A stretch of 64,000 nt of DNA. Source: Alphaproteobacteria bacterium. Its GTDB lineage: Bacteria; Pseudomonadota; Alphaproteobacteria; JACZXZ01. The DNA is taken from NCBI GenBank assembly GCA_052143835.1, contig JBKQRV010000142.1, forward strand, positions 8,995-72,994, in the 5' to 3' direction. Made by a program: the position numbers and the translations under genes. The notes under the pieces were generated by a model that was not told the DNA's origin, ran no database searches, and saw nothing but the letters and a program-made list of their open reading frames with translations. Shown piece by piece: positions 18,892-35,487 of the stretch. Numbering within the stretch: position 1 is the first letter of the stretch; the number at the start of each line of letters is the position of its first letter.

Positions 18892-19207
18892 GGCGGCGCG
18901 ACGATAGCCGAGGGCGACGGCCGGCTCAACTGCTCTCGCACTCGAGCGGGCGAGGCGCTCGCTCTCTTGCCTCGAGTGCCATGCTCCAAACGGCCCCCGA
19001 CGGCGGACCCCGCCGCCCGATCGCGCGCACGATCACGCAAATGGCACTGGCCATGGCCTTCGCCACGGTGGCAGACTTTTAGGGAGAGGATCGGCCGCCC
19101 TTGCCGGTGGCGGACGGCCGAGCGTCGCAACCCCCGTGCGCTCCCGACCATGACGGGCGGCGCCGACACTCTCGCCGAAGGCGAGGAGGTGGCAGGAGCA
19201 CCGTCCC

Positions 19208-19657
19208 ATGGTTCATCTCGACATCAACGGCCATGCGCAGGACGTCGAGGTCGATCCCTCGACGCCGCTCCTCTGGGTGCTGCGCGATACGCTCGGCTTG
19301 ACCGGCACCAAGTACGGCTGCGGCATTGCCGAGTGCGGCGCCTGCACCGTCCATATCGACGGCAAGGCAGTGCGCTCCTGCGCGATGCCGGCGAGTGCCG
19401 CCCAAGGCAAGAAGATCGTGACCATCGAGGGCCTGTCGGCCGACGGCAGCCATCCCGTGCAAGTGGCTTGGCGCGAGCTCGACGTGCCGCAGTGCGGCTA
19501 TTGCCAGGTCGGCATGATCATGGCGGCCGCGGCCCTGCTGAGGCTAAAGCCCAAGCCGACGGACGCCGAGATCGACGAAGCCATCACCAACATCTGCCGC
19601 TGCGGCACCTACACGCGCGCCCGCAAGGCGATCCACCTGGCCGCGGCCAAGGTGTAA
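19208..19657 (+). CDS. iorA: (2Fe-2S)-binding small subunit of molybdenum hydroxylase (isoquinoline 1-oxidoreductase alpha / aldehyde dehydrogenase small subunit)
   Basis: Two [2Fe-2S] motifs (CGIAECGAC and CGYCQ ... CRCGTY); 149 aa. Confidence 0.85.
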
Positions 19658-19669
19658 CGGGAGGGTGCG

Positions 19670-21835
19670 GTGAGCATGCGTGAAACGAAGGGCATCGGCC
19701 GGCGCTCCTTCCTGGTGAGCACGGCCGCCGCCGGCGGGCTCATGCTCGGCTTCCGCCTACCCGGCCTCGCACAGGCACTCGCGGCCTCCGAGACGAGAGC
19801 CGCCGGCGAGGTGAATGCTTGGCTCCTCATCGCTCCCGACGACAGCGTCACCATCCGCGTGGCGCGCTCGGAGATGGGACAAGGCAGCTTCACCGCCCTT
19901 CCCATGCTCGTCGCCGAGGAGCTCGAGTGCGATTGGTCGAAGGTCAGGGCCGAATATGCCTCGGCGAGCGAGAATCTCGCGCGCAACCGCGTCTTCGGCT
20001 CGATGACGACCGACGGCAGCCGCGCGATCCGCGACTCCCAGGAATATCTGCGCAAGGCGGGGGCCGCCGCGCGCGCGATGCTGCTCGAGGCCGCGGCCGA
20101 GAAATGGGGCGTGCCGCGCGCCGAGCTCACGGTCGAGAAGGGCGTCATCATGCACGGCGTCTCTGGCCGCCGGATGCGCTACGGCGAGATTGCCGAAGCC
20201 GCCGCCAAGATGGCGCCGCCCCGGGAGGTGAAGCTGAAGGAGCCCGGCGAGTGGACGCTCATCGGCAAGCCGCAGAGGCGCCTCGATGTCGCCGACAAGG
20301 TCTTGGGCAAGCCGGTCTTCGGCATGGACGTCCGCCTTCCCGGAATGCTTTACGCGACGATCGCGCAATGCCCGGTCTTCGGCGGCAAGCTCAAGAGCTA
20401 CGACGACAGCAAGATAAAGAGCATGAGCGGCGTGCGGCAGGTGGTGGCCCTGGCGGGCGCGGTCGCCGTCGTCGCCGACAGCTACTGGCAGGCCAAGCAG
20501 GCGCTCGATGCGCTCCCGATCGCGTGGGACGAGGGCGCCAACGCCAAGGCGAGCGACGCCGGAATCAGGGCATACCTCGAGGACGGCTTGCGTGCTGGCT
20601 ACGCCGTCGCCGCGCGTCGCGAAGGCGATGTCGAGGCAGCGCTCGCCGGCGCCGCCAAGGTGCTCGAAGCCGAGTATTTTGCCCCCTTCCTCAGCCACGC
20701 GACGATGGAGCCGATGAACGCCACGGCGCGCGTCGGCGCCGACAAGGTCGAGGTCTGGGCGCCCTCCCAGAACGCCGAGGCCTCGCTCGCCGCGGCGGCC
20801 GAGGCAGCCGGGGTCGATCCGCGCAAGGTCGAGGTTCACCTCACCATGCTGGGCGGCGGCTTCGGACGGCGGGTCGCCGCCCAGGATTACGTCAAGCAGG
20901 CCGTCGTCATCTCGAAAGCCGCGGGCCGGCCGGTGAAACTGGTGTGGTCGCGCGAGGAGGACACGAGACACGACTTCTATCGCCCGGTGAGCATGGCGAA
21001 GTTCACCGCGGCACTCGACAAGGACGGCATGCCGATCGCGTGGCGGAATCGGGTCACGGGCCAATCGATCCTCGCCTTCATGAAGCCGAGCAGGGTCAGG
21101 CACGCCTACGACGAGGAATTCCTCGAGGGGCTCGTGGACCTCCCTTACGGCATACCCAACATTCTCGTCGACTATGCGATGCGCAACACGCACGTGCCGG
21201 TCGGCTACTGGCGCTCGGTCAACCATTCGCAGAACGCCTTCTACGAGGAAAGCTTCCTCGACGAGGTGGCCCATGCGGGCGGCAAGGACCCCTACGAGCT
21301 GCGGCGCATCCTGCTCAAGGACAAGCCGAAACAGCGCGCCGTGCTCGAGGCCGCGGCCAGGAAGGTCGAGTGGGAGAAGCCGCCGCCAAGCGGCGTCCAC
21401 CGCGGCATCGCCTATCACGACGCCCGCGGCAGCCTCACCTGCCAGATCGCCGAGGTCTCCGTCGGTGCCAAGGGCGAGATCACGGTGCGCCGCATCGTTT
21501 GCGCCATCGATCCCGGCCATGTCGTCAACCCGGACACGGTCGAGGCGCAGATCGAAAGCGGCATCGTCTACGGGCTTTCCGCAGCACTTTACGGCGAGAT
21601 CACGATCAAGGACGGCCGCGTCGAGCAGTCGAATTTCGACAATTACCAGGTGCTGCGCATGAAGGAGATGCCGAAGATAGAGGTCGTGCAGGTGCCGAGC
21701 GGCGGATTCTGGGGCGGGATCGGCGAGGTAGGCGTGCCCGGCGCGGCCCCGGCGCTCTGCAACGCCATCTTTGCCGCGACGGGAAAGCGCATCCGCTCCT
21801 TGCCGCTCAAGAACCACGACCTGCGCTCGGCATGA
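19670..21835 (+). CDS. iorB: molybdopterin-binding large subunit of molybdenum hydroxylase (IorB-like), Tat-exported
   Basis: Tat motif GRRSFLV; aldehyde oxidase/xanthine dehydrogenase MoCo-binding domains; 721 aa. Confidence 0.85.
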   Translation: MSMRETKGIGRRSFLVSTAAAGGLMLGFRLPGLAQALAASETRAAGEVNAWLLIAPDDSVTIRVARSEMGQGSFTALPMLVAEELECDWSKVRAEYASASENLARNRVFGSMTTDGSRAIRDSQEYLRKAGAAARAMLLEAAAEKWGVPRAELTVEKGVIMHGVSGRRMRYGEIAEAAAKMAPPREVKLKEPGEWTLIGKPQRRLDVADKVLGKPVFGMDVRLPGMLYATIAQCPVFGGKLKSYDDSKIKSMSGVRQVVALAGAVAVVADSYWQAKQALDALPIAWDEGANAKASDAGIRAYLEDGLRAGYAVAARREGDVEAALAGAAKVLEAEYFAPFLSHATMEPMNATARVGADKVEVWAPSQNAEASLAAAAEAAGVDPRKVEVHLTMLGGGFGRRVAAQDYVKQAVVISKAAGRPVKLVWSREEDTRHDFYRPVSMAKFTAALDKDGMPIAWRNRVTGQSILAFMKPSRVRHAYDEEFLEGLVDLPYGIPNILVDYAMRNTHVPVGYWRSVNHSQNAFYEESFLDEVAHAGGKDPYELRRILLKDKPKQRAVLEAAARKVEWEKPPPSGVHRGIAYHDARGSLTCQIAEVSVGAKGEITVRRIVCAIDPGHVVNPDTVEAQIESGIVYGLSAALYGEITIKDGRVEQSNFDNYQVLRMKEMPKIEVVQVPSGGFWGGIGEVGVPGAAPALCNAIFAATGKRIRSLPLKNHDLRSA

Positions 21836-21884
21836 TCCGCGAGCGAGGACGGCGTTGCCGCCCTCCCGCCTGACCGAGGTGCCC

Positions 21885-23702
21885 TCAGGGCCTCGCGCTT
21901 GGCTCTTTCGTCGCCCTGCGGATGGCGTAGAGCGAGACGTTGCCGTAGCCCTTGGCGAGCGGCACGCTGCCGACGTAATCGCGCGCGTAGGGCGCGTTCG
22001 TCTCGAGCGCCAGCGCCGCGGCAAAGGGCTCGGTGACGTAGACCGAGCCGACCGGGGTGATCGGCTCGATGCGCGCCGCGCGGGTGACGTGGGCGCCGAA
22101 GAAGGAGGTGCGATCGAGCACCGGGTCGGTCATCTCGTTGACCGGCCCGTAGTGGCAGCCGATGCGCAGCGCCGTGTTCGCCGGCAAAGCGCTCCGCGCC
22201 AAATCGACGCGCGCCACGCGCTCCTGGATGGCAAGCGCGCAGGCGGTCGCCGCCTCGACATCGTCGAAGACGATGAAGAGCCCGTCGCCCCAGGTATTGC
22301 ACCACAGCACGTGCTCGCGAAAGCCGCGGATCGCACCCCCCATCGCACCCAGTATCTCTTGCACGAAGGCCGGGATTTGCCGCTCCGTGAGCTTGCTGAA
22401 GCCGCGCACGTCGCCGAAGAGAAAGGCGCAGAGCCGCCGCCCCTCGCCCGCGAGCGGCCCGCTCGGCCCCTCCGGCACCTCCGTGCAAGGCCGCCCAGTG
22501 CCGTCGGGTGCAATGATCAAGGTGGGATGCCCGGCCATGCGCCAGATGCGCACTTCCGCCCCCGTGCCGGCCAAGCCGTGCGAATGGTCGGGCGGCGTGC
22601 CGTCCCATAAGGCGATCTGCATTGCCTTGCCGTCGAGGAAGTCGGCGCGCTGCAAGGCCAGCCCCATGGCGTAGCGGCCGCCATAGGAGAAGAGCGCGCT
22701 CGAGCCGGCGAAATCGTCGCTCGTCGCCACGACCACGCGGCTCGCGCGCGCGAGGCAGGCCTCGAAACGCTCGAGCCAGCGCTGCCCCGCGGGCGCCACC
22801 GAGACCGCGCGGAACTCGTTGAGCTCGAAAGGGATGACGAGATGAAGCTCGGCCCCGCGCGCGAGCAGCGCCTCGGCGAAGATCACGTCGGCCCCCGCCG
22901 CGAGCGAGCCGTAGCCGTAACCGACGTCTCGTTCCGCGAGCGCCTCGCTGATCGCGCGGGCCGCGGCCGGCTCGTCGCTCTCCTTGAAGTGCCGCCCGAT
23001 GAGATGGCCGACGTAATGGATGACGGGTGCGGGTGCGAGCGGTGCGAGGATGCCCTCGTCGAGACCGAGCTGGCGGCAGGTCCGGCGCAGCTGGCGCCGC
23101 GTCGCCGCGCGCGCCTGCGTATCGACCGGGCGCACATCGGCGGCGCGGCCGATGAGCGCGCGCGCGGCAGCGACATTGCCGAGAATCAATTGCGCTTCGG
23201 CCTGCGTGGCCAGGCCGTAATAGTCGTCGGCCTTGCAGACCGCGAGCACCGCCTCCGCCGTGCGGCGCGCTTCGGCGTCGCGGCCGGCCCAGAGCAGGAG
23301 GGCCGCGGCATTGACGCCGGGATAGGGGTCGCGGGTCAGCGTGAAGACCTGGGCGTAGGCGGCGGCGGCGGCCTCCAACCGCTCGTTGCGCCGGCTCGAG
23401 GAGTCGGCGAGCGCCACATCCTTGAGCAGGCGCGCCTGGAGCGAGGGAAGGTCGACCGCAAGTTTGGCGTCGTCCGTTGCCGCCTCGCCCAGCGCCCACT
23501 TGCCGTAGAGGTCGAGCGCGCGCGCGGTGGCGCCGGCACGCGCCATGGCGAGGAGCGCACGATGCTTGTAGGCGAGAGCATCCGGGAATTCCTCGACGGC
23601 GCGATGGGCGAGATCGCAGGCGACGATCAGGTCGCCCCGCCGCATCGCCGCGTCGATCTCGGCGAGGCGTGCCGCCCCCTCTTCACCCCCTTGCGCCGTC
23701 AT
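21885..23702 (-). CDS. multidomain signalling protein: N-terminal TPR-like helical domain, SLOG (DprA/Smf-like Rossmannoid) domain, C-terminal class III adenylate/guanylate (nucleotidyl) cyclase domain
   Basis: Cyclase motifs: FGDVRGFS and WGDGLFIVF (metal-binding Asp), GCHYGPV and FGAHVTRAARIE. SLOG motif GYGYGSLAAGADVIFAEALLARGAELHLVIP resembles DprA GxARGID...GG.TIAVL. Start at MTAQGG with an AGAGG RBS. Confidence 0.75.
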   Translation of the reverse strand: MTAQGGEEGAARLAEIDAAMRRGDLIVACDLAHRAVEEFPDALAYKHRALLAMARAGATARALDLYGKWALGEAATDDAKLAVDLPSLQARLLKDVALADSSSRRNERLEAAAAAYAQVFTLTRDPYPGVNAAALLLWAGRDAEARRTAEAVLAVCKADDYYGLATQAEAQLILGNVAAARALIGRAADVRPVDTQARAATRRQLRRTCRQLGLDEGILAPLAPAPVIHYVGHLIGRHFKESDEPAAARAISEALAERDVGYGYGSLAAGADVIFAEALLARGAELHLVIPFELNEFRAVSVAPAGQRWLERFEACLARASRVVVATSDDFAGSSALFSYGGRYAMGLALQRADFLDGKAMQIALWDGTPPDHSHGLAGTGAEVRIWRMAGHPTLIIAPDGTGRPCTEVPEGPSGPLAGEGRRLCAFLFGDVRGFSKLTERQIPAFVQEILGAMGGAIRGFREHVLWCNTWGDGLFIVFDDVEAATACALAIQERVARVDLARSALPANTALRIGCHYGPVNEMTDPVLDRTSFFGAHVTRAARIEPITPVGSVYVTEPFAAALALETNAPYARDYVGSVPLAKGYGNVSLYAIRRATKEPSARP

Positions 23703-23976
23703 GCTCCCTCTGACGTTGTCCGCCCTTCCGCAGGAAGGCGGCATTTCCTCGCGGCAGAGCACGCCACCCGCCGCGAGAGAGCATAGCCGACCCCTCGCCC
23801 TCGGCGAAAGCCGCTAATTGGCCCGGGCGGCCTGCCATCGCGATTCAGCGCTTGTCCTTTGCCGTGTTACACTTTCGGCCGTCGCGGAGAGGCGCGTTGC
23901 AGAGGGGTCGGCCGCAGCGCCCCGAGGCTGGATGCTCTCTTGGAAGTCATCCGCCCGGGCAAGAGGAACCAACCGA

Positions 23977-26900
23977 ATGGCAGAACCGCTCAGGATCTTC
24001 ATCTCCTCGCCCGGCGACGTCGAGGAGGAGCGTCGGCGCGCGGCAATCGTCGTGGGCAGGCTCGCCCGCGAATTCGCGCGCTTCTTCGAGATCAAGCCGG
24101 TGCTTTGGGAATACGAGCCCATGCTCGCATCGGGCCACTTCCAGGACATCATCGAGCCGCCTTCGCGCTCCGACATCGAGGTGGTGATTCTGTGGTCGCG
24201 CCTCGGCACGCCGCTGCCGGCCGAGCGTTACCGCGGGATCGATGGACGGGCACCCGTCACCGGCACGGAATGGGAGTTCGAGGACGCGCTCAAGGCCCAC
24301 CGCGAGCGAGGTGCTCCGGACCTCCTGGTCTACCGCAAGAAGACCAAGGGAATCGCCGAGTTCGACAGCACGGAAGAGCTCGAGGCGGCGGCACTTCAGC
24401 GCAAGGCGCTCGAGCAGTTCTGGGAGCGCTACTTCGGCAGCGCTCAGAGCGGCTTCAAGGCGGCGTTCAACCTCTTCACCGACCGCGACGAGTTCGAGCA
24501 AATGCTCGAGTCGCACCTGAGGACGCTCATCCGCGAGCGCCTGCCGCGGCTCGCGGAGTCGCGCCGAGCCTCCGCCGAGATCGCCTGGCACCAAGGCTCG
24601 CCCTATCGCGGGCTCCAGTACTTCGATCTCGAGCACGCGCCGATCTTCTTCGGCCGCGCGCGCGCGCAACGCCAAGTGACCGAGGCGCTGGCGCGCCGCG
24701 CGGCAGAGGGCTCTGCCTTCGTGCTCGTCTTGGGCATGAGCGGCTGCGGCAAGTCCTCGCTCGTGCGCGCCGGCGTGCTGCCCGAGCTGATGACGCCGGG
24801 CGTGGTGAGCGGCGTCGGGATGTGGCGGCACTGCGTGTTCCGGCCGAGCGAAGGCGAGGGCGACCTGATCGGCGGGCTGATCCGGGCGCTGTCGGAGCGG
24901 GAGCAGGCTCTGCCCGAGCTCTTGGAGGGCGGCCTCAGCGTCGAGCAGGTGAGCGCTCTTGTGCGCGACGTGCCGCATCAGGCGACCGTGACGATCGCAC
25001 CGAGCCTCAAGCGCGCGGCCGAGCGCGTCAAGGGTATCGCCGGCGAGGGCCGCCTCATCCTCGTCATCGACCAATTGGAGGAGATGTTCTCGCTCCCCTC
25101 GGTCGACAAGGAGGCGCGCGAGCGCTTCGTGACGCTCATCGCAGCCCTTGCGGAGAGCCGGGTCGTGTGGGTGATCGGCGTGATGCGCAGCGACTTCTAC
25201 CACCGCGCCGCCGAGTTGCCGGTCCTCGTGCGGCTTGCGGCCGGCCGGGGAAGCTACCTGCTCACCGAGCCGACCGCGCCGGAGATCGCGGAGATGATCA
25301 ATCAACCGGCCGCCGCCGCCGGGCTCGCCTTCGAGGTGGACGCGGAAAGCGGCGAGCGGCTTGACCGGGTGCTGCAGGAAGCGGCGGCCCGCGAGCCGGG
25401 CGCCTTGCCGCTTCTCGAGTTCGCGCTCGACCAGCTCTATCGCAAGGACATCGAGGAGAAGCACGGCGAGGTCCTGACCTTCGCGAGCTACCGCGATCTC
25501 GGCGAGCTAAGGGGTGCGGTGGCGCGCCACGCGGACGAGGTGTGCGACGCCTTGCCGGCGGACGCGCGAGCGGCGCTTCCGAGCGTATTGCGCGCGCTGG
25601 TCACCGTGGGGTCGGGGGAGGACCGCGCCACCGCGCGCGCGGTGCGTCGCGACGAGATCGGCGCCAATGCGGCGCGGGCCGCCGTCATCGACCGCTTGAT
25701 CGAGGCGCGCCTGCTCGTGAGCAGCGAAGAGGAGGGTGCCGGACAGGTTCGTCTCGCGCACGACATGCTCATCGCAAGCTGGCCGCGCCTCAGGGATCTC
25801 GTGGCCGAGGATCGCGACTTCCTGCGCACGCGCGAGCGGGTCGACCAGGCGGCGGTGGAATGGGAGCGGCGCGGCCGGGCCGACGATTTCCTTTTGCCGG
25901 GCGGCCGCTCGCTCGCCGAGGCGGAGGACCTGCTCGCGCGGCGCAGCGAGGATATCGAGAGCCGCGACCGCCTCTTCATCGAGACCTCGGTTCGGCGCGA
26001 GCGCGCGCAGCGGGAGCGGCGGCTGAAACAAACGCGCGCGGTCGCCGCCGTGATGGGGCTGCTCGCCGTGGTCGCCGCCGGCTTCGGCTGGTACGCCTAC
26101 GACCGCCGCGCCGCGGCGGAGCGCAATTACGAGATCGCCGTGCGCGCGGCTCAAACGCTCGTTCGCGACGTGGCGGACCGCCTGCGCAACCTCGGCCTGC
26201 CCGCAGCCAGCGTGCGCGACATCCTGACGAGCGCCGAATCGCTTTACAAAGACCTCACTCTCGACGCCGCCTCGCGGCCCGACCTTCTCGGCCGGAAGGC
26301 GGAGACGCTGATGTCGCTCGCCGACACCTACGCGGCACTCGGGGATACCGGTGCCGAGCGCAAGCGGGCCGAAGAGGCGCGCGCGGCCTTCCTCGATCTC
26401 ATCGCAAAGCACCCGAACGATACGACCTGGCAGCGCGACCTTTCCGTCAGCCAAAACAAGGTCGGAGACGCGCTTCGCGCCCAAGGTGATCTGGCCGGCG
26501 CGCTTGAGAGCTATCGCGCCGGCCTGGATACCACGGAGAAGCTCGCGGCGCGCGATGCTTCCAACGCCGTCTGGCAGCGCGATCTCGCCATCAGCCACGA
26601 GCGCATCGGCGACACGCTCACCGCGGAAGGAGACCTCGGCGGCGCGCTCGCCAGCTATCGCAAGGGCCTCGCGATCCACGAGGCGCTGGCGAAACGCAAT
26701 CCCTCCGATAGCGAGGGGCAGCGCGACCTTTCAGTCAGCGACAACAAGATCGGCGACGCGCTCCGCAATGGCGGAGAGCCGGCGGAGGCGCTCAAGAGCT
26801 ACCGCGCCGGCTTGGCGATCATGGAAGCGCTCACGGCGAAGGATCCCTCGAACACGCAGTGGCTGCGCGACCTCGCCATCAGCCACGAGCGGATCGGCAA

Positions 26901-28233
26901 TGTACTCCGCATCCAGGGCGACGAGACGGAGGCGCTTGCGAGCTACCGCAAGAGCCTCGCGATTCACGAGCAACTTGCGGCGCGCGACTTGTCCAACACG
27001 GTGTGGCAGCTCGACGTCTCCATCGGCAACGAGAGGATCGGCGACATGCTCGCCAGCCAGGGCAATCTCGCGGAGGCGCTCAAGAGCTACCGCACGTCCC
27101 TCGGGACGCGAGAGAGGCTGGTGGCGCGCGATCCCTCCAATTCCGACTGGCAGCGCGATCTCTCGGTTGGCGAAAACAAGGTGGGGGACGTGCTCCGCGT
27201 CCAGGGCGATGCGAAGGGCGCGCTTGCCAGCTATCGCACGGGCCTCGACATCATGGAGAAGCTCGTGGCGCGGGATCCCTCGAATGCCGGCTGGCAGCGG
27301 GATGTCTCAATCAGCTACGAGCGGATCGGCGATGCGCTGGCCGCCCAGGGAAACCAAGGAGAGGCGCTGGCGAGCTATCGCAAGAGCCTCGATATTCGCG
27401 AGAAGCTTGCCGCGCGCGACCCATCCAACATCGGCTGGACCTACGACCTGTCCATCAGCAATACCAAGATCGGCGACGCGCTCCGCGCACAAGGGGACCA
27501 GGACGGAGCGCTTGCGAGCTATCGCACGGAGCTCGCGATCGTCGAGAAGCTGGCGGCGCGCGACCCCACGAACGCGGAGTGGCAGCGCGACGTCTCCGTC
27601 GGGCAAAACCGCATCGGCGACGTGCTCCGCGCGAAGAACGACTTGGGGGGAGCGCTCGCGAGCTATCGTACCGGTCTTGCGGTCATGGAGAAGCTCTCGG
27701 CGCGCGATCGTGCGAACGCGCTTTGGCAGCACGATCTCTGCGTCAGCTACGAGCGCATCGGCGACGTGCTGGCGCTTCAACGGGATCCCGCGGGGGCGCT
27801 CGCATACTATCGGCAGGAGCTCGAGCTCATCGGCAAGCTTGCGGCGGCCAATCCCTCGAACCTCTCCTGGCAGCGCGAGCTCTACCTCACGCAAAACCGC
27901 GTCGGCAACGCGCTTGCCGCAACGGGTGATCAGGCGGGAGCGCTCGCGAGCTTTCGCGCCGGCCTTGAGACCATTTCGCCGCTGGCATCGCGCGATCCAT
28001 CCAACACCGGCGAGCAGCACGATCTCGCCGTCAGCCACGAGCGGATCGCGAGCGCGCTGAGCGCGCTCGGGAACCAGGCCGAGGCGCTTGCAAGCTACAA
28101 TAGGAGCCTCGAAATCATCGAGACGCTCCTCGCGAAGCAGCCGTCGAATACACTCTGGCAGCATGATCGCTCCTATTTGCGCGGCGAAATCGGGACTCTC
28201 GCAAAAAATTCGCCAAGCGGTTCCGCCCAATGA
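23977..28233 (+). CDS. STAND-type P-loop NTPase with N-terminal DUF4062/TIR-like domain, single TM helix and C-terminal array of about 13-14 TPR_10/12-type (42-aa) repeats
   Basis: N-terminal IFISSPGDVEEER plus a conserved acidic TEWEFEDAL. Walker A is VLVLGMSGCGKSSLV and Walker B is LILVIDQLEE. TM helix is AVAAVMGLLAVVAAGFGWYAY. The C-terminal repeats have WQRDL anchors. An AGGA RBS precedes the ATG at 23977; the ORF's upstream extension to 23818 is rejected. Confidence 0.75.
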   Translation: MAEPLRIFISSPGDVEEERRRAAIVVGRLAREFARFFEIKPVLWEYEPMLASGHFQDIIEPPSRSDIEVVILWSRLGTPLPAERYRGIDGRAPVTGTEWEFEDALKAHRERGAPDLLVYRKKTKGIAEFDSTEELEAAALQRKALEQFWERYFGSAQSGFKAAFNLFTDRDEFEQMLESHLRTLIRERLPRLAESRRASAEIAWHQGSPYRGLQYFDLEHAPIFFGRARAQRQVTEALARRAAEGSAFVLVLGMSGCGKSSLVRAGVLPELMTPGVVSGVGMWRHCVFRPSEGEGDLIGGLIRALSEREQALPELLEGGLSVEQVSALVRDVPHQATVTIAPSLKRAAERVKGIAGEGRLILVIDQLEEMFSLPSVDKEARERFVTLIAALAESRVVWVIGVMRSDFYHRAAELPVLVRLAAGRGSYLLTEPTAPEIAEMINQPAAAAGLAFEVDAESGERLDRVLQEAAAREPGALPLLEFALDQLYRKDIEEKHGEVLTFASYRDLGELRGAVARHADEVCDALPADARAALPSVLRALVTVGSGEDRATARAVRRDEIGANAARAAVIDRLIEARLLVSSEEEGAGQVRLAHDMLIASWPRLRDLVAEDRDFLRTRERVDQAAVEWERRGRADDFLLPGGRSLAEAEDLLARRSEDIESRDRLFIETSVRRERAQRERRLKQTRAVAAVMGLLAVVAAGFGWYAYDRRAAAERNYEIAVRAAQTLVRDVADRLRNLGLPAASVRDILTSAESLYKDLTLDAASRPDLLGRKAETLMSLADTYAALGDTGAERKRAEEARAAFLDLIAKHPNDTTWQRDLSVSQNKVGDALRAQGDLAGALESYRAGLDTTEKLAARDASNAVWQRDLAISHERIGDTLTAEGDLGGALASYRKGLAIHEALAKRNPSDSEGQRDLSVSDNKIGDALRNGGEPAEALKSYRAGLAIMEALTAKDPSNTQWLRDLAISHERIGNVLRIQGDETEALASYRKSLAIHEQLAARDLSNTVWQLDVSIGNERIGDMLASQGNLAEALKSYRTSLGTRERLVARDPSNSDWQRDLSVGENKVGDVLRVQGDAKGALASYRTGLDIMEKLVARDPSNAGWQRDVSISYERIGDALAAQGNQGEALASYRKSLDIREKLAARDPSNIGWTYDLSISNTKIGDALRAQGDQDGALASYRTELAIVEKLAARDPTNAEWQRDVSVGQNRIGDVLRAKNDLGGALASYRTGLAVMEKLSARDRANALWQHDLCVSYERIGDVLALQRDPAGALAYYRQELELIGKLAAANPSNLSWQRELYLTQNRVGNALAATGDQAGALASFRAGLETISPLASRDPSNTGEQHDLAVSHERIASALSALGNQAEALASYNRSLEIIETLLAKQPSNTLWQHDRSYLRGEIGTLAKNSPSGSAQ

Positions 28234-28264: not shown

Positions 28265-28741
28265 ATGAGCAACGCCTATCTCTTGATCAGGACCATTCAC
28301 ATCCTGAGCGCCACCCTGCTCCTCGGCACCGGCATCGGAACGGCTTTCCACATGTGGTTCGCCCATCGTACGGGCGACCTGCACGCGATCGCGGCGGTGT
28401 CCGCCAACGTCGTGCTGGCGGATTTTCTCTTCACCACGCCCGCAATCATCGCGCAGCCGCTGAGCGGCGTCGCCCTCATCTGGCTCCAGCACGGCGATCC
28501 CTGGGCGCCCTGGCTCATTGCGTCCTACGCCCTCTTTGTCGTCGCAGGCACGTGCTGGCTGGCCATCGTCGGACTGCAGATCAGGGTGCGCGATCTCGCC
28601 CGCGCGGCGCTTGCGGCGGGACGGCCGCTCCCCCCCGAATACCACCACTCGATGCGGCTCTGGTTCAGACTCGGCTGGCCGGCCCTCGCGGCCGTGCTGG
28701 CGATCTTCTGGTTGATGACGGCGCAGCCGCGGCTTTGGTAG
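28265..28741 (+). CDS. DUF2269-family integral membrane protein
   Basis: 158 aa with four TM helices (MSNAYLLIRTIHILSATLLLGTGIG ...). Confidence 0.6.
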   Translation: MSNAYLLIRTIHILSATLLLGTGIGTAFHMWFAHRTGDLHAIAAVSANVVLADFLFTTPAIIAQPLSGVALIWLQHGDPWAPWLIASYALFVVAGTCWLAIVGLQIRVRDLARAALAAGRPLPPEYHHSMRLWFRLGWPALAAVLAIFWLMTAQPRLW

Positions 28742-29716: not shown

Positions 29717-30493
29717 ATGAGCTATCGCCACGATCTCGTCTCGGTCGAGGCGCTCAAGAGCCGCATCCTGGCGCTCGAGGGCGCCTGGCAGGGTGTCGGC
29801 CGGCACGAGGAAGCACGGCCCGCAGCCCCGCTTGGGCTCGAGCCGTTGGACCGTGCCTTGCCCTGGGGCGGTCTGCCCACGGCCTGTCTCCACGAGGTCT
29901 CGGCAGGAGCCGCGGCCGATGGTGCCGTTGCCGGCTTCGCTGCCTATCTCCTCGCCCGCTTGAGCGCCGCGGCGGGAAGGCGGCAGTCCGCCGTGCTTTG
30001 GTGTGCCGCGGGCGAGGGGCTTTACGGGCCGGGTCTTGCCGCCTACGGGCTGGATACGCACCGGCTCATCCTCGTGCGCGGACGGCGCCAGGCCGACCTT
30101 CTGTGGGCGCTCGAAGAAGCCTTGCGCTCGGGTGCCCTCGCCGCCGTGCTGGGCGAGATCGAGGAGGCGGACTTGACTGCCACGCGCCGGCTCCAGCTTG
30201 CCGCCGAGGCCGGGCGCACGACGGCCCTCCTGCTCCGTCCTCTGGGCGGCAAGCCCGCCCCCTCGGCCGCCGTCACCGCTTGGCGCATTGCCGCCGCCCC
30301 CTCGGGAGCGGCCCCCTGGGGCGCCGGACTCGGCCGTGAGCGCTGGCGCCTCGAGCTCGTGCGTTGCCGCGGAGGGTTGCCGCGTCAATGGCTTGTGGAG
30401 TGGAACGATGAGGCGAATCGTCTCGCTGTCGCTGCCGAGTTTCGCGACCGATCGGTTGACGCGCCTACCGGCGCTCGCCGCCTGGCGGGCTAA
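29717..30493 (+). CDS. imuA: translesion DNA synthesis-associated protein ImuA (SulA/RecA-like)
   Basis: 258 aa, first gene of the imuA-imuB-dnaE2 cassette, LexA boxes upstream, with a RecA-fold-like core. Confidence 0.8.
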   Translation: MSYRHDLVSVEALKSRILALEGAWQGVGRHEEARPAAPLGLEPLDRALPWGGLPTACLHEVSAGAAADGAVAGFAAYLLARLSAAAGRRQSAVLWCAAGEGLYGPGLAAYGLDTHRLILVRGRRQADLLWALEEALRSGALAAVLGEIEEADLTATRRLQLAAEAGRTTALLLRPLGGKPAPSAAVTAWRIAAAPSGAAPWGAGLGRERWRLELVRCRGGLPRQWLVEWNDEANRLAVAAEFRDRSVDAPTGARRLAG

Positions 30494-31949
30494 GCCCTTC
30501 GCGACCACCGCGAAAGCGGGCGGCCGGCTCGTCATCGTCGCCGCCAATGCGCCGGCCGAGGCCGCCGGCATTGCTCCCGGCCAAGTGCTGGCGGACGCGC
30601 GCGCGCTTGAGCCGGGCTTGCGTGTCGTCGCCGCCGACCCCTCTGCCGACGGCTCTGCCCTTGCAGCCCTTGCCGACGGGTTGACGCGCTACACCCCTTG
30701 GGTGGCCGTCGACGAGCAGGGGGAAGGTGGCGCGCGCGGCGCGCTTCTCGACATCACCGGCTGCGCCCATCTCTTCGGCGGCGAGGCGGCCCTCTTGGCC
30801 GACCTCATAGGCCGGCTCGAGCGCTGCGGCTTCGCCGCGCGTGCGGCAATCGCAGCGAGTGCGGGGGCCGCCTGGGCGGTCGCCCGCTTCGCTCCTCACG
30901 ATCGCCTCATCATCGCGCCCGGCGCCGAGGGCGAAGCGCTCGCGGCTCTCCCCGTTGCCGCCTTGAGGCTGCCGGCCGAGACGGCGGGCAGGCTCGAGCG
31001 CCTCGGGCTGCGCCGCATCGGCGCCCTCTATACGCTGCCGCGGGCACCCCTCGCACGCCGCTTCGGGAGCCTCGTCGGCCGCCGTCTCGACCAAGCGCTC
31101 GGCCGCGTGCAGGAGCCGATCTCGCCGCGCCGGCCGGTCGAGCCCTGGCGCCTCCAGCTCGCCTTTGCCGAGCCGATCGCGCAACGCGAGGATATCGCGG
31201 CCGCCACTGAGCATCTCACGGCCGCGCTCTGCCGCCGCTTGGCCGAGGAGATGAAGGGCGCGCGCCGGCTCGTCCTCGCACTTTACCGGGTCGACGGCAC
31301 CCTCGCGCGCGTCGAGATCGGCACCAGCCGCCCGGTGCGCGAGACCAAGCATCTCATGCGTCTCTTCGCCGAGAAGCTCGACGGCCTCGACGTCGGGCTC
31401 GGCCTCGACCTCGTGGCGCTTTCCGCCCCCGTGGTCGAGCCGCTCGCGGCGTCCCAGAGCGGCCTGCTCGCTGGCGCGAGCGAGGCAGCGCTGCCCGCGC
31501 TCGCTGCCCTTGTCGACCGCCTCGCCAACCGCCTCGGCGCGAGCGAGGTACGCCGGCTGGTCCCCGTCGCGAGCCACCTTCCCGAGCGCGCCCAGCGCGC
31601 GGCCCCGGCACTGGCCTCGGCGGGTGCCGCGGAAGCTCCTTGGCGTAAGCGCCGGCCGCGTCCCTTGCGCCTCTTCACGCGACCCCAGCCGGTCGATGCG
31701 ATCGCCCCCGTGCCCGATGATCCCCCCCTCCTCTTCCGCTGGCGCGCGCAGCTCCACCGCATCCGCCGCGCCGACGGGCCCGAGCGCATCGCCGGCGAGT
31801 GGTGGCAGGGCAACACCCCCGCCCAAGCCGAGGTGCGCGACTATTATAGGGTCGAGGACGAGGCGGGCAGGCGCTTCTGGCTCTATCGCGAGGGCCTCTA
31901 CCACCCCGAGCGCCGCCCGCGCTGGTTCCTCCACGGGCTGTTCGCGTGA
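30408..31949 (+). CDS. imuB: Y-family DNA polymerase-like protein ImuB
   Basis: 513 aa starting MRRIVSLSLPSFATDRL (UmuC-like N-terminus). It overlaps the imuA 3' end in another frame and lies upstream of dnaE2. Confidence 0.8.
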   Translation: MRRIVSLSLPSFATDRLTRLPALAAWRAKPFATTAKAGGRLVIVAANAPAEAAGIAPGQVLADARALEPGLRVVAADPSADGSALAALADGLTRYTPWVAVDEQGEGGARGALLDITGCAHLFGGEAALLADLIGRLERCGFAARAAIAASAGAAWAVARFAPHDRLIIAPGAEGEALAALPVAALRLPAETAGRLERLGLRRIGALYTLPRAPLARRFGSLVGRRLDQALGRVQEPISPRRPVEPWRLQLAFAEPIAQREDIAAATEHLTAALCRRLAEEMKGARRLVLALYRVDGTLARVEIGTSRPVRETKHLMRLFAEKLDGLDVGLGLDLVALSAPVVEPLAASQSGLLAGASEAALPALAALVDRLANRLGASEVRRLVPVASHLPERAQRAAPALASAGAAEAPWRKRRPRPLRLFTRPQPVDAIAPVPDDPPLLFRWRAQLHRIRRADGPERIAGEWWQGNTPAQAEVRDYYRVEDEAGRRFWLYREGLYHPERRPRWFLHGLFA

Positions 31950-31974
31950 GGTGACCGCGCCGTCAAAGTGTTTT

Positions 31975-32177
31975 CACCACGGAGACACGGAGGACACGGA
32001 GGACACGGAGAAGAAGAAAGCAAGATCTAACGCAGAGGTCGCGAAGGATGCGACGCCAGAGGCGTCGCATCAGTGGACGCAGAGGAATAATTTTTCTCCG
32101 CGTCCTCTGCGCATCCTCCGCGTCCTCTGCGCTGAACAATGCCTTCTCTTCTCCGTGTCTTCCGTGTCTCCGTGGTG
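31975..32177. repeat. self-complementary intergenic repeat element (copy 2) between imuB and dnaE2
   Basis: Near-perfect terminal inverted repeats: CACCACGGAGACACGGAGGACACGGAG (31975-32010) and CTCCGTGTCTTCCGTGTCTCCGTGGTG (32151-32177). Internal features are CGCAGAGG/CCTCTGCG inverted pairs and a 17-mer direct repeat CTCCGCGTCCTCTGCGC x2. Confidence 0.7.
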
Positions 32178-32202
32178 CATCTGTCGTGCACTGGGATTAC
32201 CC

Positions 32203-35487
<3,285 letters not shown>

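Follow-up and report, generated by a model that had tools for sequence, protein, structure and literature searches.

A divergently transcribed gene pair proposed to relay a NAD-derived signal to a class III nucleotidyl cyclase

Two genes, A and B (Table 1), diverge from a 274-bp spacer in the 64-kb stretch of DNA that was analysed (the window), as read from open reading frames and start codons. At a probability of roughly one half, the pair is proposed to be a relay that chains two second messengers on Thoeris-type logic, and to represent a variant of Thoeris-type TIR signalling that is conserved but has no name. The sequence of events, to which we give the same even odds, would be that the NADase head of the gene B product makes a NAD-derived signal, the TPR-S and SLOG modules of the gene A product bind it, and its cyclase answers with a cNMP. 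Most likely, though this is not established, the pair responds to a threat from outside or at the envelope, for instance phage or competitors.

Gene A lies within a minus-strand open reading frame (21885..23762), in which the likeliest start is the ATG at 23702, the same point at which its homologues start. Gene B lies within a plus-strand open reading frame (23818..28233), with its likeliest start at the ATG at 23977, just behind AAGAGGA. The length of the spacer follows from these two starts, and agrees with the reading frames and 274-bp shared region claimed in an earlier note on this DNA. The flanking genes named there were also found: an iorB-like gene (MoCo-binding), a DUF2269 gene and imuB. 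The context is that of a conserved chromosomal locus with no recognisable defence island. A block of the spacer at about 23778-23820 (...GAGAGCATAGCCGACC...GGCGAAAGCCGCTAATTGG...) was kept even in relatives whose gene A is only 74-77% identical, and a near-palindrome, GTGTTACAC, occurs at about 23864-23872. Neither a sigma-70 consensus nor a terminator was found in the 274 bp. The PADLOC models recognised neither gene as a system component, and its Thoeris models did not call the pair, which is in keeping with the earlier statement that the combination has no name. The further statement that the module is undescribed holds only in part, as TPR-S, the cADPR response of type VIII Thoeris and the NIR NADase have all been described.

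Table 1. Positions in the window of the two genes, their domains and motifs, and the region between them.
Feature	Position	Strand	Details
Gene A	21885..23702	-	605 aa; soluble TPR-S/SLOG/class III cyclase protein; predicted receptor and relay
Class III cyclase homology domain	21912..22442	-	gene A residues 421-597
Cyclase Arg544	22065-22097	-	GAHVTRAARIE
Cyclase Asp473	22281-22298	-	NTWGDG; metal-binding
Cyclase Asp431	22395-22418	-	FGDVRGFS; metal-binding
YpsA-like SLOG Rossmannoid domain	22503..23036	-	gene A residues 223-400
TPR-S module, all-helical	23037..23702	-	gene A residues 1-222; Pfam TPR-S at residues 28-136; helices H3-H222 in model
Shared divergent control region	23703-23976	.	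274 bp; sequence and alignment with L001, L084, L002, L003
Gene B	23977..28233	+	1418 aa; membrane-anchored, NLR-like; NIR/DUF4062, nSTAND1, one TM helix, TPR array; predicted sensor and signal generator
DUF4062/NIR-type head	23977..24591	+	gene B residues 1-205
Head motif	24262-24288	+	G96-T-E98-W-E100-F-E102-D-A104; invariant; includes candidate catalytic Glu
nSTAND1 NTPase	24601..25884	+	gene B residues 209-636; Pfam PF20703 (E 8.7e-96) and AAA_16
Walker A	24733-24759	+	GMSGCGKSS; in nSTAND1
Walker B	25060-25083	+	LVIDQLEE; in nSTAND1
Juxtamembrane linker and TM region	25891..26100	+	helical linker, Arg/Lys-rich stretch, single TM helix
Helical linker	25891-25935	+	LLxGxxLxxAExLL
TM helix	26038-26100	+	gene B residues 688-708; hydropathy 1.92
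TPR array	26314..28176	+	gene B residues about 780-1400; Pfam TPR_12, TPR_10 and related families

Genes with a TIR or DUF4062 head were found within 2 kb of a gene A relative at 48 of the 80 genome loci, and at 36 of 56 when only loci with 3 kb or more on each side of the relative are counted. There were 49 genes of this type in 292 kb near gene A relatives and 7 in 959 kb farther out, a 23-fold difference in density. Among the taxa were Alpha-, Beta- and Gammaproteobacteria, Actinomycetota, Cyanobacteria and Eremiobacterota, and the genes were oriented divergently, in tandem upstream or in tandem downstream. Co-localisation across genomes, which the earlier note proposed as a check, was recovered, with divergence as one of several arrangements. 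Among 47 partner N-termini, Pfam TIR_2 was found in 37, DUF4062 in 7 and nSTAND1 in 8, and the TIR catalytic Glu was kept in all 30 of 30 partners. The partners shared a plan in which a TIR/NIR head, in some cases joined to a STAND NTPase, is followed by a single TM helix and by WD40, TPR or Sel1 repeats that are predicted to be extracellular. In one natural fusion (P0313), TPR-S, SLOG, cyclase, TIR and TM segments were joined in a single polypeptide. Adjacency, enrichment and fusion together bear out the view that genes A and B work as one module.

The linkage was weaker when viewed from gene B. Gene A was present at 5 of 80 metagenome loci with gene B-type NIR-nSTAND1 proteins, and in neither of two long-contig look-ups. 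Since B-type proteins mostly lack gene A, gene A appears to depend on a TIR/NIR partner, and not the reverse. The pair itself was kept at two related loci, L002 and L003 (gene A 74-77% and gene B 71-86% identical in protein sequence), where the neighbouring iorAB was not. NIR-nSTAND1 was again combined with gene A, now 39-53% identical and in varied arrangements, at seven further loci (L019, L028, L034, L058, L111, L125 and L147); in L111 a GAF protein and an S8 subtilase are encoded between the two. This conservation and recurrence make it very unlikely, close to negligibly so, that genes A and B are independent and adjacent by chance in the present genome, even though their divergent orientation implies no shared transcript and most gene B relatives stand without gene A.

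Gene A had more than 890 full-length homologues, its product contained no hydrophobic segment, and the AlphaFold model had a pLDDT of 92.7 and a pTM of 0.91. The N-terminus matched Pfam TPR-S (PF20308, E 3e-10) above the gathering threshold, and also MAP3K_TRAF_bd (PF13281, E 2.7e-6) above the cut-off. The next domain, with an invariant Gly-rich loop (GYGSLAxGADxxFAE, 22872-22916), had been called a DprA-like SLOG; it is a SLOG, but its fold is nearer to YpsA than to DprA, and the SLOG of ThsA with bound 3'cADPR is a further structural neighbour. The cyclase domain retains both metal-binding Asp residues and the Arg, numerous residues are invariant across the family, and the fold is nearer to canonical AC/GC than to PycC. 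Judged by these residues the domain looks active. It departs from the canonical residues at the purine-specificity (Asn469) and transition-state (Thr/Ser540) positions, which makes the substrate, and even activity, uncertain.

Gene A thus holds two ligand-sensor modules tied to NAD-derived signals, TPR-S and the YpsA-like SLOG. As later works report it, Burroughs and Aravind 2020 (J Bacteriol 202:e00365-20) introduced TPR-S as a module predicted to sense NAD+-derived signals made by TIR domains. In type VIII Thoeris a TPR-bearing effector, whose TPR is credited to the same 2020 paper, responds to cADPR. The relay logic, so far as these later works convey the paper, is predicted by Burroughs and Aravind 2020 and partly validated by type VIII Thoeris.

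Gene B had more than 2097 homologues, usually of about 1190 aa. DUF4062 was the sole Pfam match of the head, covering the full profile in 16 of the 16 family members tested, with scores of 18-20 bits that fall below the gathering threshold of 24.7 (best E among the 16, 1.6e-5); PADLOC PDC-S60 also matched the N-terminus (E 5e-6). With hhalign, no link emerged between this head and the other partners' TIR profile. Work from 2026 identified DUF4062 experimentally as a NADase ('NIR') that serves as effector of Avs2 and other NLR-like proteins, with a TIR-like fold and a catalytic Glu at about residue 100 (bioRxiv 10.64898/2026.09.04.749371). The GTEWExExA motif of gene B occupies residues 96-104; characterised NIR domains have their catalytic Glu at E98-E108. 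Every domain call of the earlier note was upheld, with DUF4062 as a sub-threshold match. Tandem Repeats Finder resolved the TPR array into 48-aa units (144-nt period, 10.3 copies, 26427-27914).

Of 113 gene B homologues that exceed 900 aa, 88 had exactly one TM-like segment (median position 706), and the linker-plus-TM plan was also found in TIR-TM-WD40 partners. Eight K/R residues lie upstream of the gene B helix and four downstream; 42 of 44 partners had more K/R on the N-terminal than on the C-terminal side of the helix, and none had the reverse. By the positive-inside rule, the TPR array of gene B is predicted to lie outside the cytoplasm. A membrane between a STAND sensor and its own repeat array is mechanistically unusual.

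One alternative casts gene B as an NLR-like defence protein that depletes NAD+ on its own, and gene A as a metabolic-alarm or regulatory cyclase, only loosely co-selected with it and not its receiver; the gene A SLOG would then be an enzyme or a sensor of the general nucleotide pool. Gene B relatives are usually solo, NIR-STAND proteins function as single-gene systems, LOG-clade SLOG domains are enzymes, and about 40% of gene A relatives had no TIR/NIR gene within 10 kb. We consider this unlikely, as the 23-fold enrichment, the 60% adjacency over phyla and orientations and the A-TIR-TM fusion are not easily accounted for unless the two are directly coupled in function, and both TPR-S and the YpsA-like SLOG are tied in the literature specifically to TIR-derived ligands.

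Coupling could also run in the opposite direction, in the Pycsar-like manner suggested by the earlier note: gene A would sense an infection cue through TPR-S/SLOG, and its cNMP would activate the gene B NIR for terminal NAD+ depletion. Validated cyclase-plus-TIR pairs of this logic exist, Pucsar cGMP activating a TIR NADase, and the NIR domains characterised so far are terminal effectors that use up NAD+, leaving plain ADPR, and do not act to generate a signal. This direction is nonetheless quite improbable, because the cNMP-binding domain present in Pycsar/Pucsar TIR effectors is absent from gene B and its TIR counterparts. Given that absence and B-type proteins that mostly lack gene A, flow from a NADase head to SLOG/TPR-S fits better. 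That gene B comes with a SLOG/TPR-S cyclase of its own suggests a signalling use for the gene B product, beyond NAD+ depletion.

For flow in this preferred direction, from gene B to gene A, we infer the following steps. Gene B would be a single-pass membrane protein with its NIR head and nSTAND1 in the cytoplasm and its TPR array across the membrane. A cue detected by the repeat array or the STAND module may cause NTPase-driven oligomerisation, in which NIR heads would meet and cleave NAD+ to ADP-ribose, or to cyclic or otherwise modified ADP-ribose. This product would be bound by the soluble receptor, gene A, through its TPR-S scaffold and YpsA-like SLOG. The ligand would bring gene A into a dimer or oligomer, assembling the obligately dimeric class III cyclase, which would then make a 3',5'-cyclic nucleotide of uncertain base. 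The cNMP would be read by proteins with cNMP-binding domains, like those beside or fused to gene A in other genomes.

Genes for such readers were found within about 5 kb of a gene A relative at about 25 of the 80 loci, and none was found across the 64-kb window. They encoded Crp-type regulators, twin-CNB C39-ABC exporters, a CNB-patatin and a CNB histidine kinase, and SARP-CNB modules were fused to four gene A relatives (P0284, P0310, P0312 and P0287). Outputs in relatives are mostly transcription and export, as opposed to cell suicide. The same coupling might serve no immunity at all, but a housekeeping transmembrane pathway comparable to receptor kinases or receptor cyclases, from an extracytoplasmic cue through a NAD-derived messenger and cAMP/cGMP to Crp/SARP transcription. 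The prevalence of transcription factors and exporters, the chromosomal context conserved in relatives, the absence of a PADLOC system and the predicted extracytoplasmic repeats are consistent with such a pathway. It is nevertheless somewhat unlikely: TIR/NIR, STAND, SLOG and TPR-S are all found overwhelmingly in conflict systems, CNB-patatin and C39 bacteriocin-type exporters belong among outputs of the conflict type, and swapping of the sensor repeats, here among WD40, TPR and Sel1, typifies arms-race receptors.

The proposed relay from gene B to gene A most resembles Thoeris, a two-gene arrangement in which a TIR-class NADase makes a NAD-derived messenger that a second protein reads. Type I ThsA (SIR2-SLOG, with ThsB) reads 3'cADPR by its SLOG, and type VIII ThsI reads cADPR, presumably by its TPR, as its authors suggest; gene A bears both kinds of reader module, and most of its partners bear a catalytically intact TIR. 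In contrast to Thoeris, the output here is a class III cyclase and a second messenger instead of a killing enzyme or pore, gene B has a DUF4062/NIR head and no TIR, with a STAND NTPase, TM helix and repeats where ThsB is small and soluble, and no defence phenotype is known for the pair. The TPR-S systems of Burroughs and Aravind share with gene A the TPR-S and MAP3K_TRAF_bd matches above threshold, and the linkage of TPR-S to TIR and to YpsA-type SLOG domains that later work attributes to the 2020 paper; the TPR scaffold of animal ASK/MAP3K5 is related to TPR-S. The partners listed in secondary sources are TIR, YpsA, patatin, LSDAT and calcineurin, and those lists contain no cyclase fusion, membrane-anchored TIR-TM-repeat partner or NIR-nSTAND1 partner. 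Nor did the accessible literature, in which the 2020 paper is represented by later works, contain the cyclase output, this membrane topology or the NIR-nSTAND1 form.

NIR-headed Avs2 and NLR-like proteins resemble gene B in the head with a Glu at about residue 100, the central STAND NTPase and the C-terminal TPR-type repeats. They differ in that the NTPase of gene B is an nSTAND1, no PADLOC Avs model matches it, a TM helix separates NTPase from repeats, and it is paired with a dedicated SLOG/TPR-S cyclase. Pycsar and Pucsar likewise place a class III-type cyclase beside a TIR-class NADase and use a cyclic mononucleotide messenger, but their effector TIR is fused to a cNMP-binding domain that gene B lacks, their cyclases stand alone or carry accessory domains other than TPR-S-SLOG, and the signal direction proposed here is the opposite. 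Toll-like receptors are a functional analogy only. They too cross the membrane once, with a solenoid or repeat sensor on the extracytoplasmic side and a TIR-class domain in the cytoplasm, a topology that is predicted for the bacterial proteins, and their downstream cascade often ends in transcription. Homology is limited to the TIR class, and the bacterial heads, with their Glu kept, look enzymatic, whereas the TIR domains of Toll-like receptors are adaptors.

Gene A and gene B are two large, divergent ORFs. The longest reading frame of gene A starts at a GTG at 23762, and its homologs have their first Met where the codon at 23702 lies; alignment with relatives revealed no coding conservation upstream of 23702. 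For gene B, the longest ORF runs from 23818, and the homologs likewise start at the position of the ATG at 23977, which is preceded by AAGAGGA. These starts leave a spacer of 274 bp, the same length that had been read from the sequence in the earlier note. One block of the spacer, GAGAGCATAGCCGACC...GGCGAAAGCCGCTAATTGG, was kept down to relatives in which gene A is 74-77% identical, and a near-palindrome, GTGTTACAC, was common to the window and to L003, one of the close relatives. The block or the near-palindrome could be an operator or promoter, and a consensus scan of the spacer matched no sigma-70 promoter and no terminator.

Features of the gene pair and its surroundings
Feature	Position	Strand	Remarks
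MoCo-binding iorAB-like genes	19154-21841		adjoin gene A
Gene A	21885..23702	minus	ORF, 605 aa
Conserved spacer block	~23778-23820		
Spacer near-palindrome	23864-23872		
Gene B	23977..28233	plus	ORF, 1418 aa
TPR array of gene B	26427-27914		144-nt (48-aa) period, 10.3 copies, 65% identity
DUF2269 integral membrane protein gene	28283-28741	plus	~50 bp downstream of gene B
ImuB-like gene	30198-31949	plus	IMS, IMS_C, DUF6504
Very long ORF after ImuB-like gene	31510-35487		

The G+C content across the pair (0.66-0.72) was the same as that of the flanks. The iorAB-like genes were present in the 95-96% relatives (L004) and were missing or replaced at the same site in the 74-77% relatives (L002 and L003), in which both the flank synteny and the A/B pair were kept. 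In other words, among the closest relatives the pair was retained while the adjacent iorAB genes came and went. The DUF2269 gene had no counterpart beside the pair in L003 and is therefore probably not a member of the module. The very long ORF that follows the ImuB-like gene fits an imuA-imuB-dnaE2 mutagenesis cassette, of which ImuB alone was checked. A mobile-element origin of the pair was rejected because its composition was ordinary and its synteny with relatives was kept; only two full-length plasmid matches were found, both of them distant.

Whether the two genes are functionally linked was addressed from the side of gene A with a set of at least 567 relatives, taken from one genome per species. 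From these the 80 best loci, each with no more than 10 kb of flank, were scanned with HMMs built from the large direct neighbors of A, which were delineated by all-against-all ORF clustering. A gene with a TIR or DUF4062 head was found within 2 kb of A in 48 of the 80 best loci, and within the same distance in 36 of the 56 loci whose flanks reached 3 kb or more in each direction. Such genes were 23-fold denser near A (49 in 292 kb) than farther away (7 in 959 kb). The proportion of 48 of 80 is probably an underestimate, since the TIR and NIR HMMs (NIR being the newer name of DUF4062) missed some large, TM-containing neighbors of A that look related, among them partners in L022 and L044 that begin MEYDGFISYSHAADG... 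and nSTAND-type neighbors without a recognizable head in L038 and L069. Pfam analysis of 47 partner N-termini identified TIR_2 in 37, DUF4062 in 7, and nSTAND1 in 8, and the TIR catalytic Glu was conserved in all 30 of the partners tested for it. The association spanned Alpha-, Beta-, and Gammaproteobacteria, many Actinomycetota, one cyanobacterium, and one Eremiobacterota genome, and occurred in divergent and both tandem orientations. The NIR-nSTAND1 form of partner seen in the window was also found in L019, L028 (Desertibaculum), L034, L058, L111, L125, and L147, where gene A is 39-53% identical to that of the window.

A search with gene A residues 1-420 against 1.8 billion cluster representatives returned 709 relatives at E ≤ 1e-30. 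Almost all of these were 590-620 aa long and therefore included the cyclase. One of the proteins from this search, P0313 (925 aa), carried TPR-S, SLOG, cyclase, TIR, and TM segments in a single chain. Gene A is thus tied genomically to a TIR-class NAD+-processing enzyme, as is expected of TPR-S systems, and the functional pairing proposed from the window sequence was upheld by the 48 loci, the 23-fold enrichment, and this fusion.

The picture from the side of gene B was different. In a B-centered scan, only 5 of the 80 metagenome loci that encode a B-type head also encoded A, two of the five being from the window's own lineage, and no other conserved partner emerged from these loci. Two megabase-scale contigs with B-type genes contained no A, their neighbors being a membrane protein and a patatin. 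The proposition that B always needs A was rejected on these grounds: A usually has a TIR or NIR partner, and B-type proteins are usually solo. Two rival readings would be consistent with the many solo B-type genes: a gene B that works autonomously with A unrelated to it, which is unlikely, and chance adjacency of A and B, which is very unlikely. The density of TIR/DUF4062-headed genes around A, the P0313 fusion, and the retention of the pair beside changing iorAB genes argue for a partnership. In L082 (6638-7786), a divergent patatin phospholipase gene was the immediate neighbor of a solo B-type NIR-nSTAND1 gene (P0154), an arrangement seen once. A more distant gene A homolog (36% identity) was found on a mobilizable plasmid, pSBC2-4 of Caballeronia sp. 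SBC2 (L163, 24385-40046), with a TIR-domain gene and a DUF4231 gene 3.4-7 kb away. DUF4231 is presumably a SLATT-type family, in which case this locus would resemble type VII Thoeris. The 'hypothetical protein' overlapping upstream of the plasmid homolog was lipoprotein-like and was rejected as a TIR, NIR, or cNMP-binding (CNB) protein.

The domains assigned to the two proteins at first reading were upheld by Pfam, by alignments, and, for gene A, by a confident AlphaFold model built with 48 homologs (pLDDT 92.7, pTM 0.91), with the head of gene B a sub-threshold match. In the model, the N-terminal third is helical and is followed by two alpha/beta domains, one central and one C-terminal. TPR-S (PF20308) matched residues 28-136 (E 3e-10, 41 bits versus a cut-off of 27.6) and was found throughout the gene A family; MAP3K_TRAF_bd, which is related to TPR-S, was also matched above its curated cut-off. 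The central domain had no Pfam match and no sequence relative in the PDB. In the model, it is a member of the SLOG superfamily, with the Rossmannoid fold and Gly-rich nucleotide-binding loop of that superfamily, and the YpsA clade was nearest. Lower structural matches included ShosA/DprA (11-12), LOG phosphoribohydrolases (~10), the MoCo carrier protein, the TRPM2 MHR domain, and the ThsA SLOG domain bound to 3'cADPR (7.3).

The C-terminal domain matched Guanylate_cyc (PF00211) above its curated cut-off (residues 425-594, E 4e-7) and has the class III cyclase fold. Its structural matches included the class III cyclases CyaB (21.0), Cya2 (20.5), and Rv1900c (19.7), with the uridylate and cytidylate cyclases of Pycsar below these canonical enzymes (14.6-16.1). 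Alignment with PDB sequences identified the metal-binding residues D431 and D473 and the transition-state Arg, R544, all invariant in 48 homologs, so that the conserved residues suggest a cyclase that is probably active. In class III cyclases, substrate specificity is set by a residue pair, Lys/Asp for ATP and Glu/Cys for GTP, and a transition-state Asn is also typical. Gene A has neither the canonical pair nor this Asn: the Lys/Glu position is Asn469, which is invariant in the family, the second specificity position is Ser534, which is variable, and the transition-state Asn position is Thr540, replaced by Ser in most relatives. With these residues, the cyclase product is not predictable from sequence; the nucleotide formed in this non-canonical pocket (Asn469, Ser/Thr540) might be an unusual one.

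In gene B, nSTAND1, a family named by Kaur et al. 2021, matched residues 209-636 (E 8.7e-96). Its Walker A (GMSGCGKSS) and Walker B (LVIDQLEE) motifs are both intact. Many TPR families matched between residues ~780 and 1400. The length of the array varied among relatives, with B homologs of 977 to 1421 aa, and this variation suggests repeat expansion and contraction. A single hydrophobic helix was found at residues 688-708 after an Arg/Lys-rich stretch, with 8 K/R upstream versus 4 downstream, and exactly one such helix was present in 88 of the 113 long B homologs, at a median position of 706.

In the head of gene B, DUF4062 alone was matched in the N-terminal 135-205 residues, over the full profile and below the gathering threshold. 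All 16 B family members examined gave the same full-length, sub-threshold match, with a best E of 1.6e-5. Residues 96-104 form a motif that is invariant across the family, G-T-E-W-E-x-E-x-A, and its residues E98, E100, and E102 vary little or not at all. NIR domains have a TIR-like fold and are NADases, converting NAD+ to ADPR and nicotinamide, with a catalytic Glu at 98-108, and are the effector heads in Avs2 and in further NLR-like proteins (bioRxiv 10.64898/2026.09.04.749371). Profile-profile comparison of the B head with the partner TIR domains by hhalign was not significant (probability 0.3%), and a PDB sequence profile search with the B head returned chance matches only. Because of the hhalign result, the term 'TIR-like' for gene B depends on the sub-threshold DUF4062 match together with the published NIR work, which make a NIR-type NADase a well-motivated candidate.

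The partners of A share a general plan: a TIR or NIR head, in some cases joined to nSTAND1, then a helical linker in which the motif LLRGxxLxxAExW recurs, and then a juxtamembrane stretch rich in Arg. A single TM helix was predicted in 43 of 48 partner proteins. The repeat domain was variable, with WD40 propellers in Actinomycetota and, in Proteobacteria, segments of TPR, Sel1, or Pro-rich type. According to the positive-inside rule, the Lys/Arg-rich flank of a TM helix is the cytoplasmic side. More Lys/Arg residues were present on the N-terminal than on the C-terminal flank in 42 of 44 partners, and the reverse was found in none; the heads are thus predicted to be cytoplasmic and the repeats to be outside the cell.

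Candidate readers of the cyclase product were also encoded near A. In roughly 25 of the 80 loci, an HMM from one neighbor family detected proteins with a cNMP-binding domain at distances of up to about 5 kb from A. By Pfam they were Crp-type regulators, bacteriocin-type C39 peptidase ABC exporters with twin cNMP_binding domains, cNMP_binding-patatin proteins, and one cNMP_binding histidine kinase. Crp-type proteins occurred beside A relatives in L012, L017, L023, L033, L051, and L062, and CNB proteins of neighbor cluster 9 in L015, L018, L021, L038, L039, L066, and L076, of which L021 and L066 only were twin-CNB C39-ABC exporters by Pfam. A CNB-patatin was beside A in L079, CNB and patatin were found in L039 (with MFS also in the stop-to-stop ORF), and a further cNMP-binding-domain protein was found in L072. 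Four proteins from the search with residues 1-420 (P0284, P0310, P0312, and P0287) placed an OmpR-type wHTH, BTAD (as in SARP-type activators), and CNB before TPR-S-SLOG-cyclase, which suggests that these fusions are self-contained signal-to-transcription proteins. The CNB proteins near A relatives probably form the system's third tier. In the 64-kb window, no cNMP-binding gene was detected with two HMMs derived from the neighbors. In L111 (1-11547), 5 kb separated the A relative from a NIR-nSTAND1 gene of the B type, and the interval encoded a GAF-domain protein, an S8 subtilase, and an ABC ATPase, a set that may represent alternative effectors.

Going beyond architecture and genomic association, we infer a relay from a NADase head through a TPR-S/SLOG cyclase to a cyclic nucleotide, and put its probability at roughly one half. 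The repeat sensor, plus the STAND NTPase in gene B, would activate the TIR or NIR head, which would cleave NAD+; an NAD-derived product would be bound by the TPR-S/SLOG module of gene A, and this binding would assemble the cyclase dimer and lead to cNMP synthesis; the cNMP-binding proteins would then carry out the response. It is known that the ThsA SLOG domain binds 3'cADPR and that type VIII Thoeris signals via cADPR, with a TPR in ThsI. The direction of the relay was deduced from the asymmetric co-occurrence of A and B, the two modules in A of kinds linked to TIR-derived ligands, the lack of CNB domains in the partners, and the existence of separate cNMP readers. Confidence in the relay is limited by the chance that the B head yields plain ADPR instead of a specific signal, by the non-canonical cyclase pocket, by the membrane predicted between the STAND module and the repeats that would control it, and by the lack of a reader gene near the pair in the window. 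A reverse, Pycsar-like flow, in which the cyclase would act on the TIR or NIR protein, would use the same enzyme classes; it is unlikely and was set aside because the partners have no CNB domain. A non-immune signaling role for the pair is a further, less likely alternative, with which the Crp-type regulators and wHTH-BTAD fusions would agree; the NADase-type heads and the STAND-repeat plan of gene B are features shared with defense proteins. An extended form of the NADase-to-cyclase relay, a receptor pathway of Toll-like-receptor geometry with two chained messengers, running from an extracytoplasmic TPR/WD40/Sel1 sensor through the TM helix, a cytoplasmic NADase (sometimes with STAND), and the TPR-S/SLOG cyclase to CNB-bearing transcription factors, exporters, or phospholipases, is more tentative than the relay itself.

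The gene A family is widespread and the predicted receptor-like topology of its partners is striking. If the relay is correct, a TIR- or NIR-made NAD-derived signal would be converted to a cyclic-nucleotide signal, for which no earlier case was found, linking two kinds of messenger system, the Thoeris type and the Pycsar or cAMP type, on which work has until now been separate. It would provide a function for the orphan gene A family (with relatives in at least 567 species-level genomes and in 709 clusters at 50% identity), would make the membrane-anchored TIR-TM-repeat proteins a large class of probable transmembrane receptors, and would extend the NIR NADase from terminal effector to possible signal generator. 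It would also offer a testable bacterial counterpart to two arrangements in animals, namely receptors with TIR domains and the ASK signalosome with its TPR-S scaffold. In the more tentative, Toll-like reading, bacterial TIR-class signaling would reach beyond intracellular abortive infection to transmembrane sensing with transcriptional output.

TPR-S was reportedly described by Burroughs and Aravind in 2020 as a predicted sensor of TIR-made NAD+-derived signals, akin to the ASK/MAP3K5 scaffold. The kind of system is therefore known, and the description of the pair as undescribed had to be narrowed to the cyclase output (a two-messenger relay), the membrane partner with repeats predicted to face outward, and the NIR-nSTAND1 form of that partner, none of which was found in the portions of the literature consulted. 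Those portions give TIR, YpsA, patatin, LSDAT, and calcineurin as partners of the TPR core and do not mention a cyclase fusion; if such a fusion is already in the 2020 work, the locus is less novel. Neither NCBIfam nor PADLOC gave a system-level match to the two proteins, and the matches obtained were weak and partial.

Like Avs proteins, gene B combines an effector head, a STAND NTPase, and C-terminal repeats (DUF4062-like, nSTAND1 at E 9e-96, and TPR). However, the Avs1-5 clades are soluble, single-gene systems, whereas gene B has a TM helix and is paired with A in several lineages; no PADLOC Avs model matched it, and only weak PDC-S60 and mad8 matches were obtained. Pycsar and Pucsar also contain a cyclase and TIR, but in the opposite order and with CNB-TIR effectors, while B and its counterparts have no CNB. 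Gene A is not a member of the PycC/PucC cyclase clade, with PycC structures ranking below canonical adenylate and guanylate cyclases and no PADLOC Pycsar match. The analogy to Pycsar drawn in the earlier note was abandoned, as the inferred signal direction is the opposite. The pair also has a likeness to Thoeris. PADLOC found no Thoeris match in the pair, and the parts consulted of the tables of a 2025 survey of 29 putative Thoeris types show no class III cyclase effector. The position of the Thoeris TIR signal producer would be occupied by a DUF4062/NIR head in the window and by TIR_2 in 37 of the 47 partners, with the Glu kept in 30 of 30. Gene A has signal-binding modules (SLOG and TPR-S), but its output is a cyclase rather than a known Thoeris effector. 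The pair was filed as putative Thoeris/TPR-S-type NAD-derived signaling.
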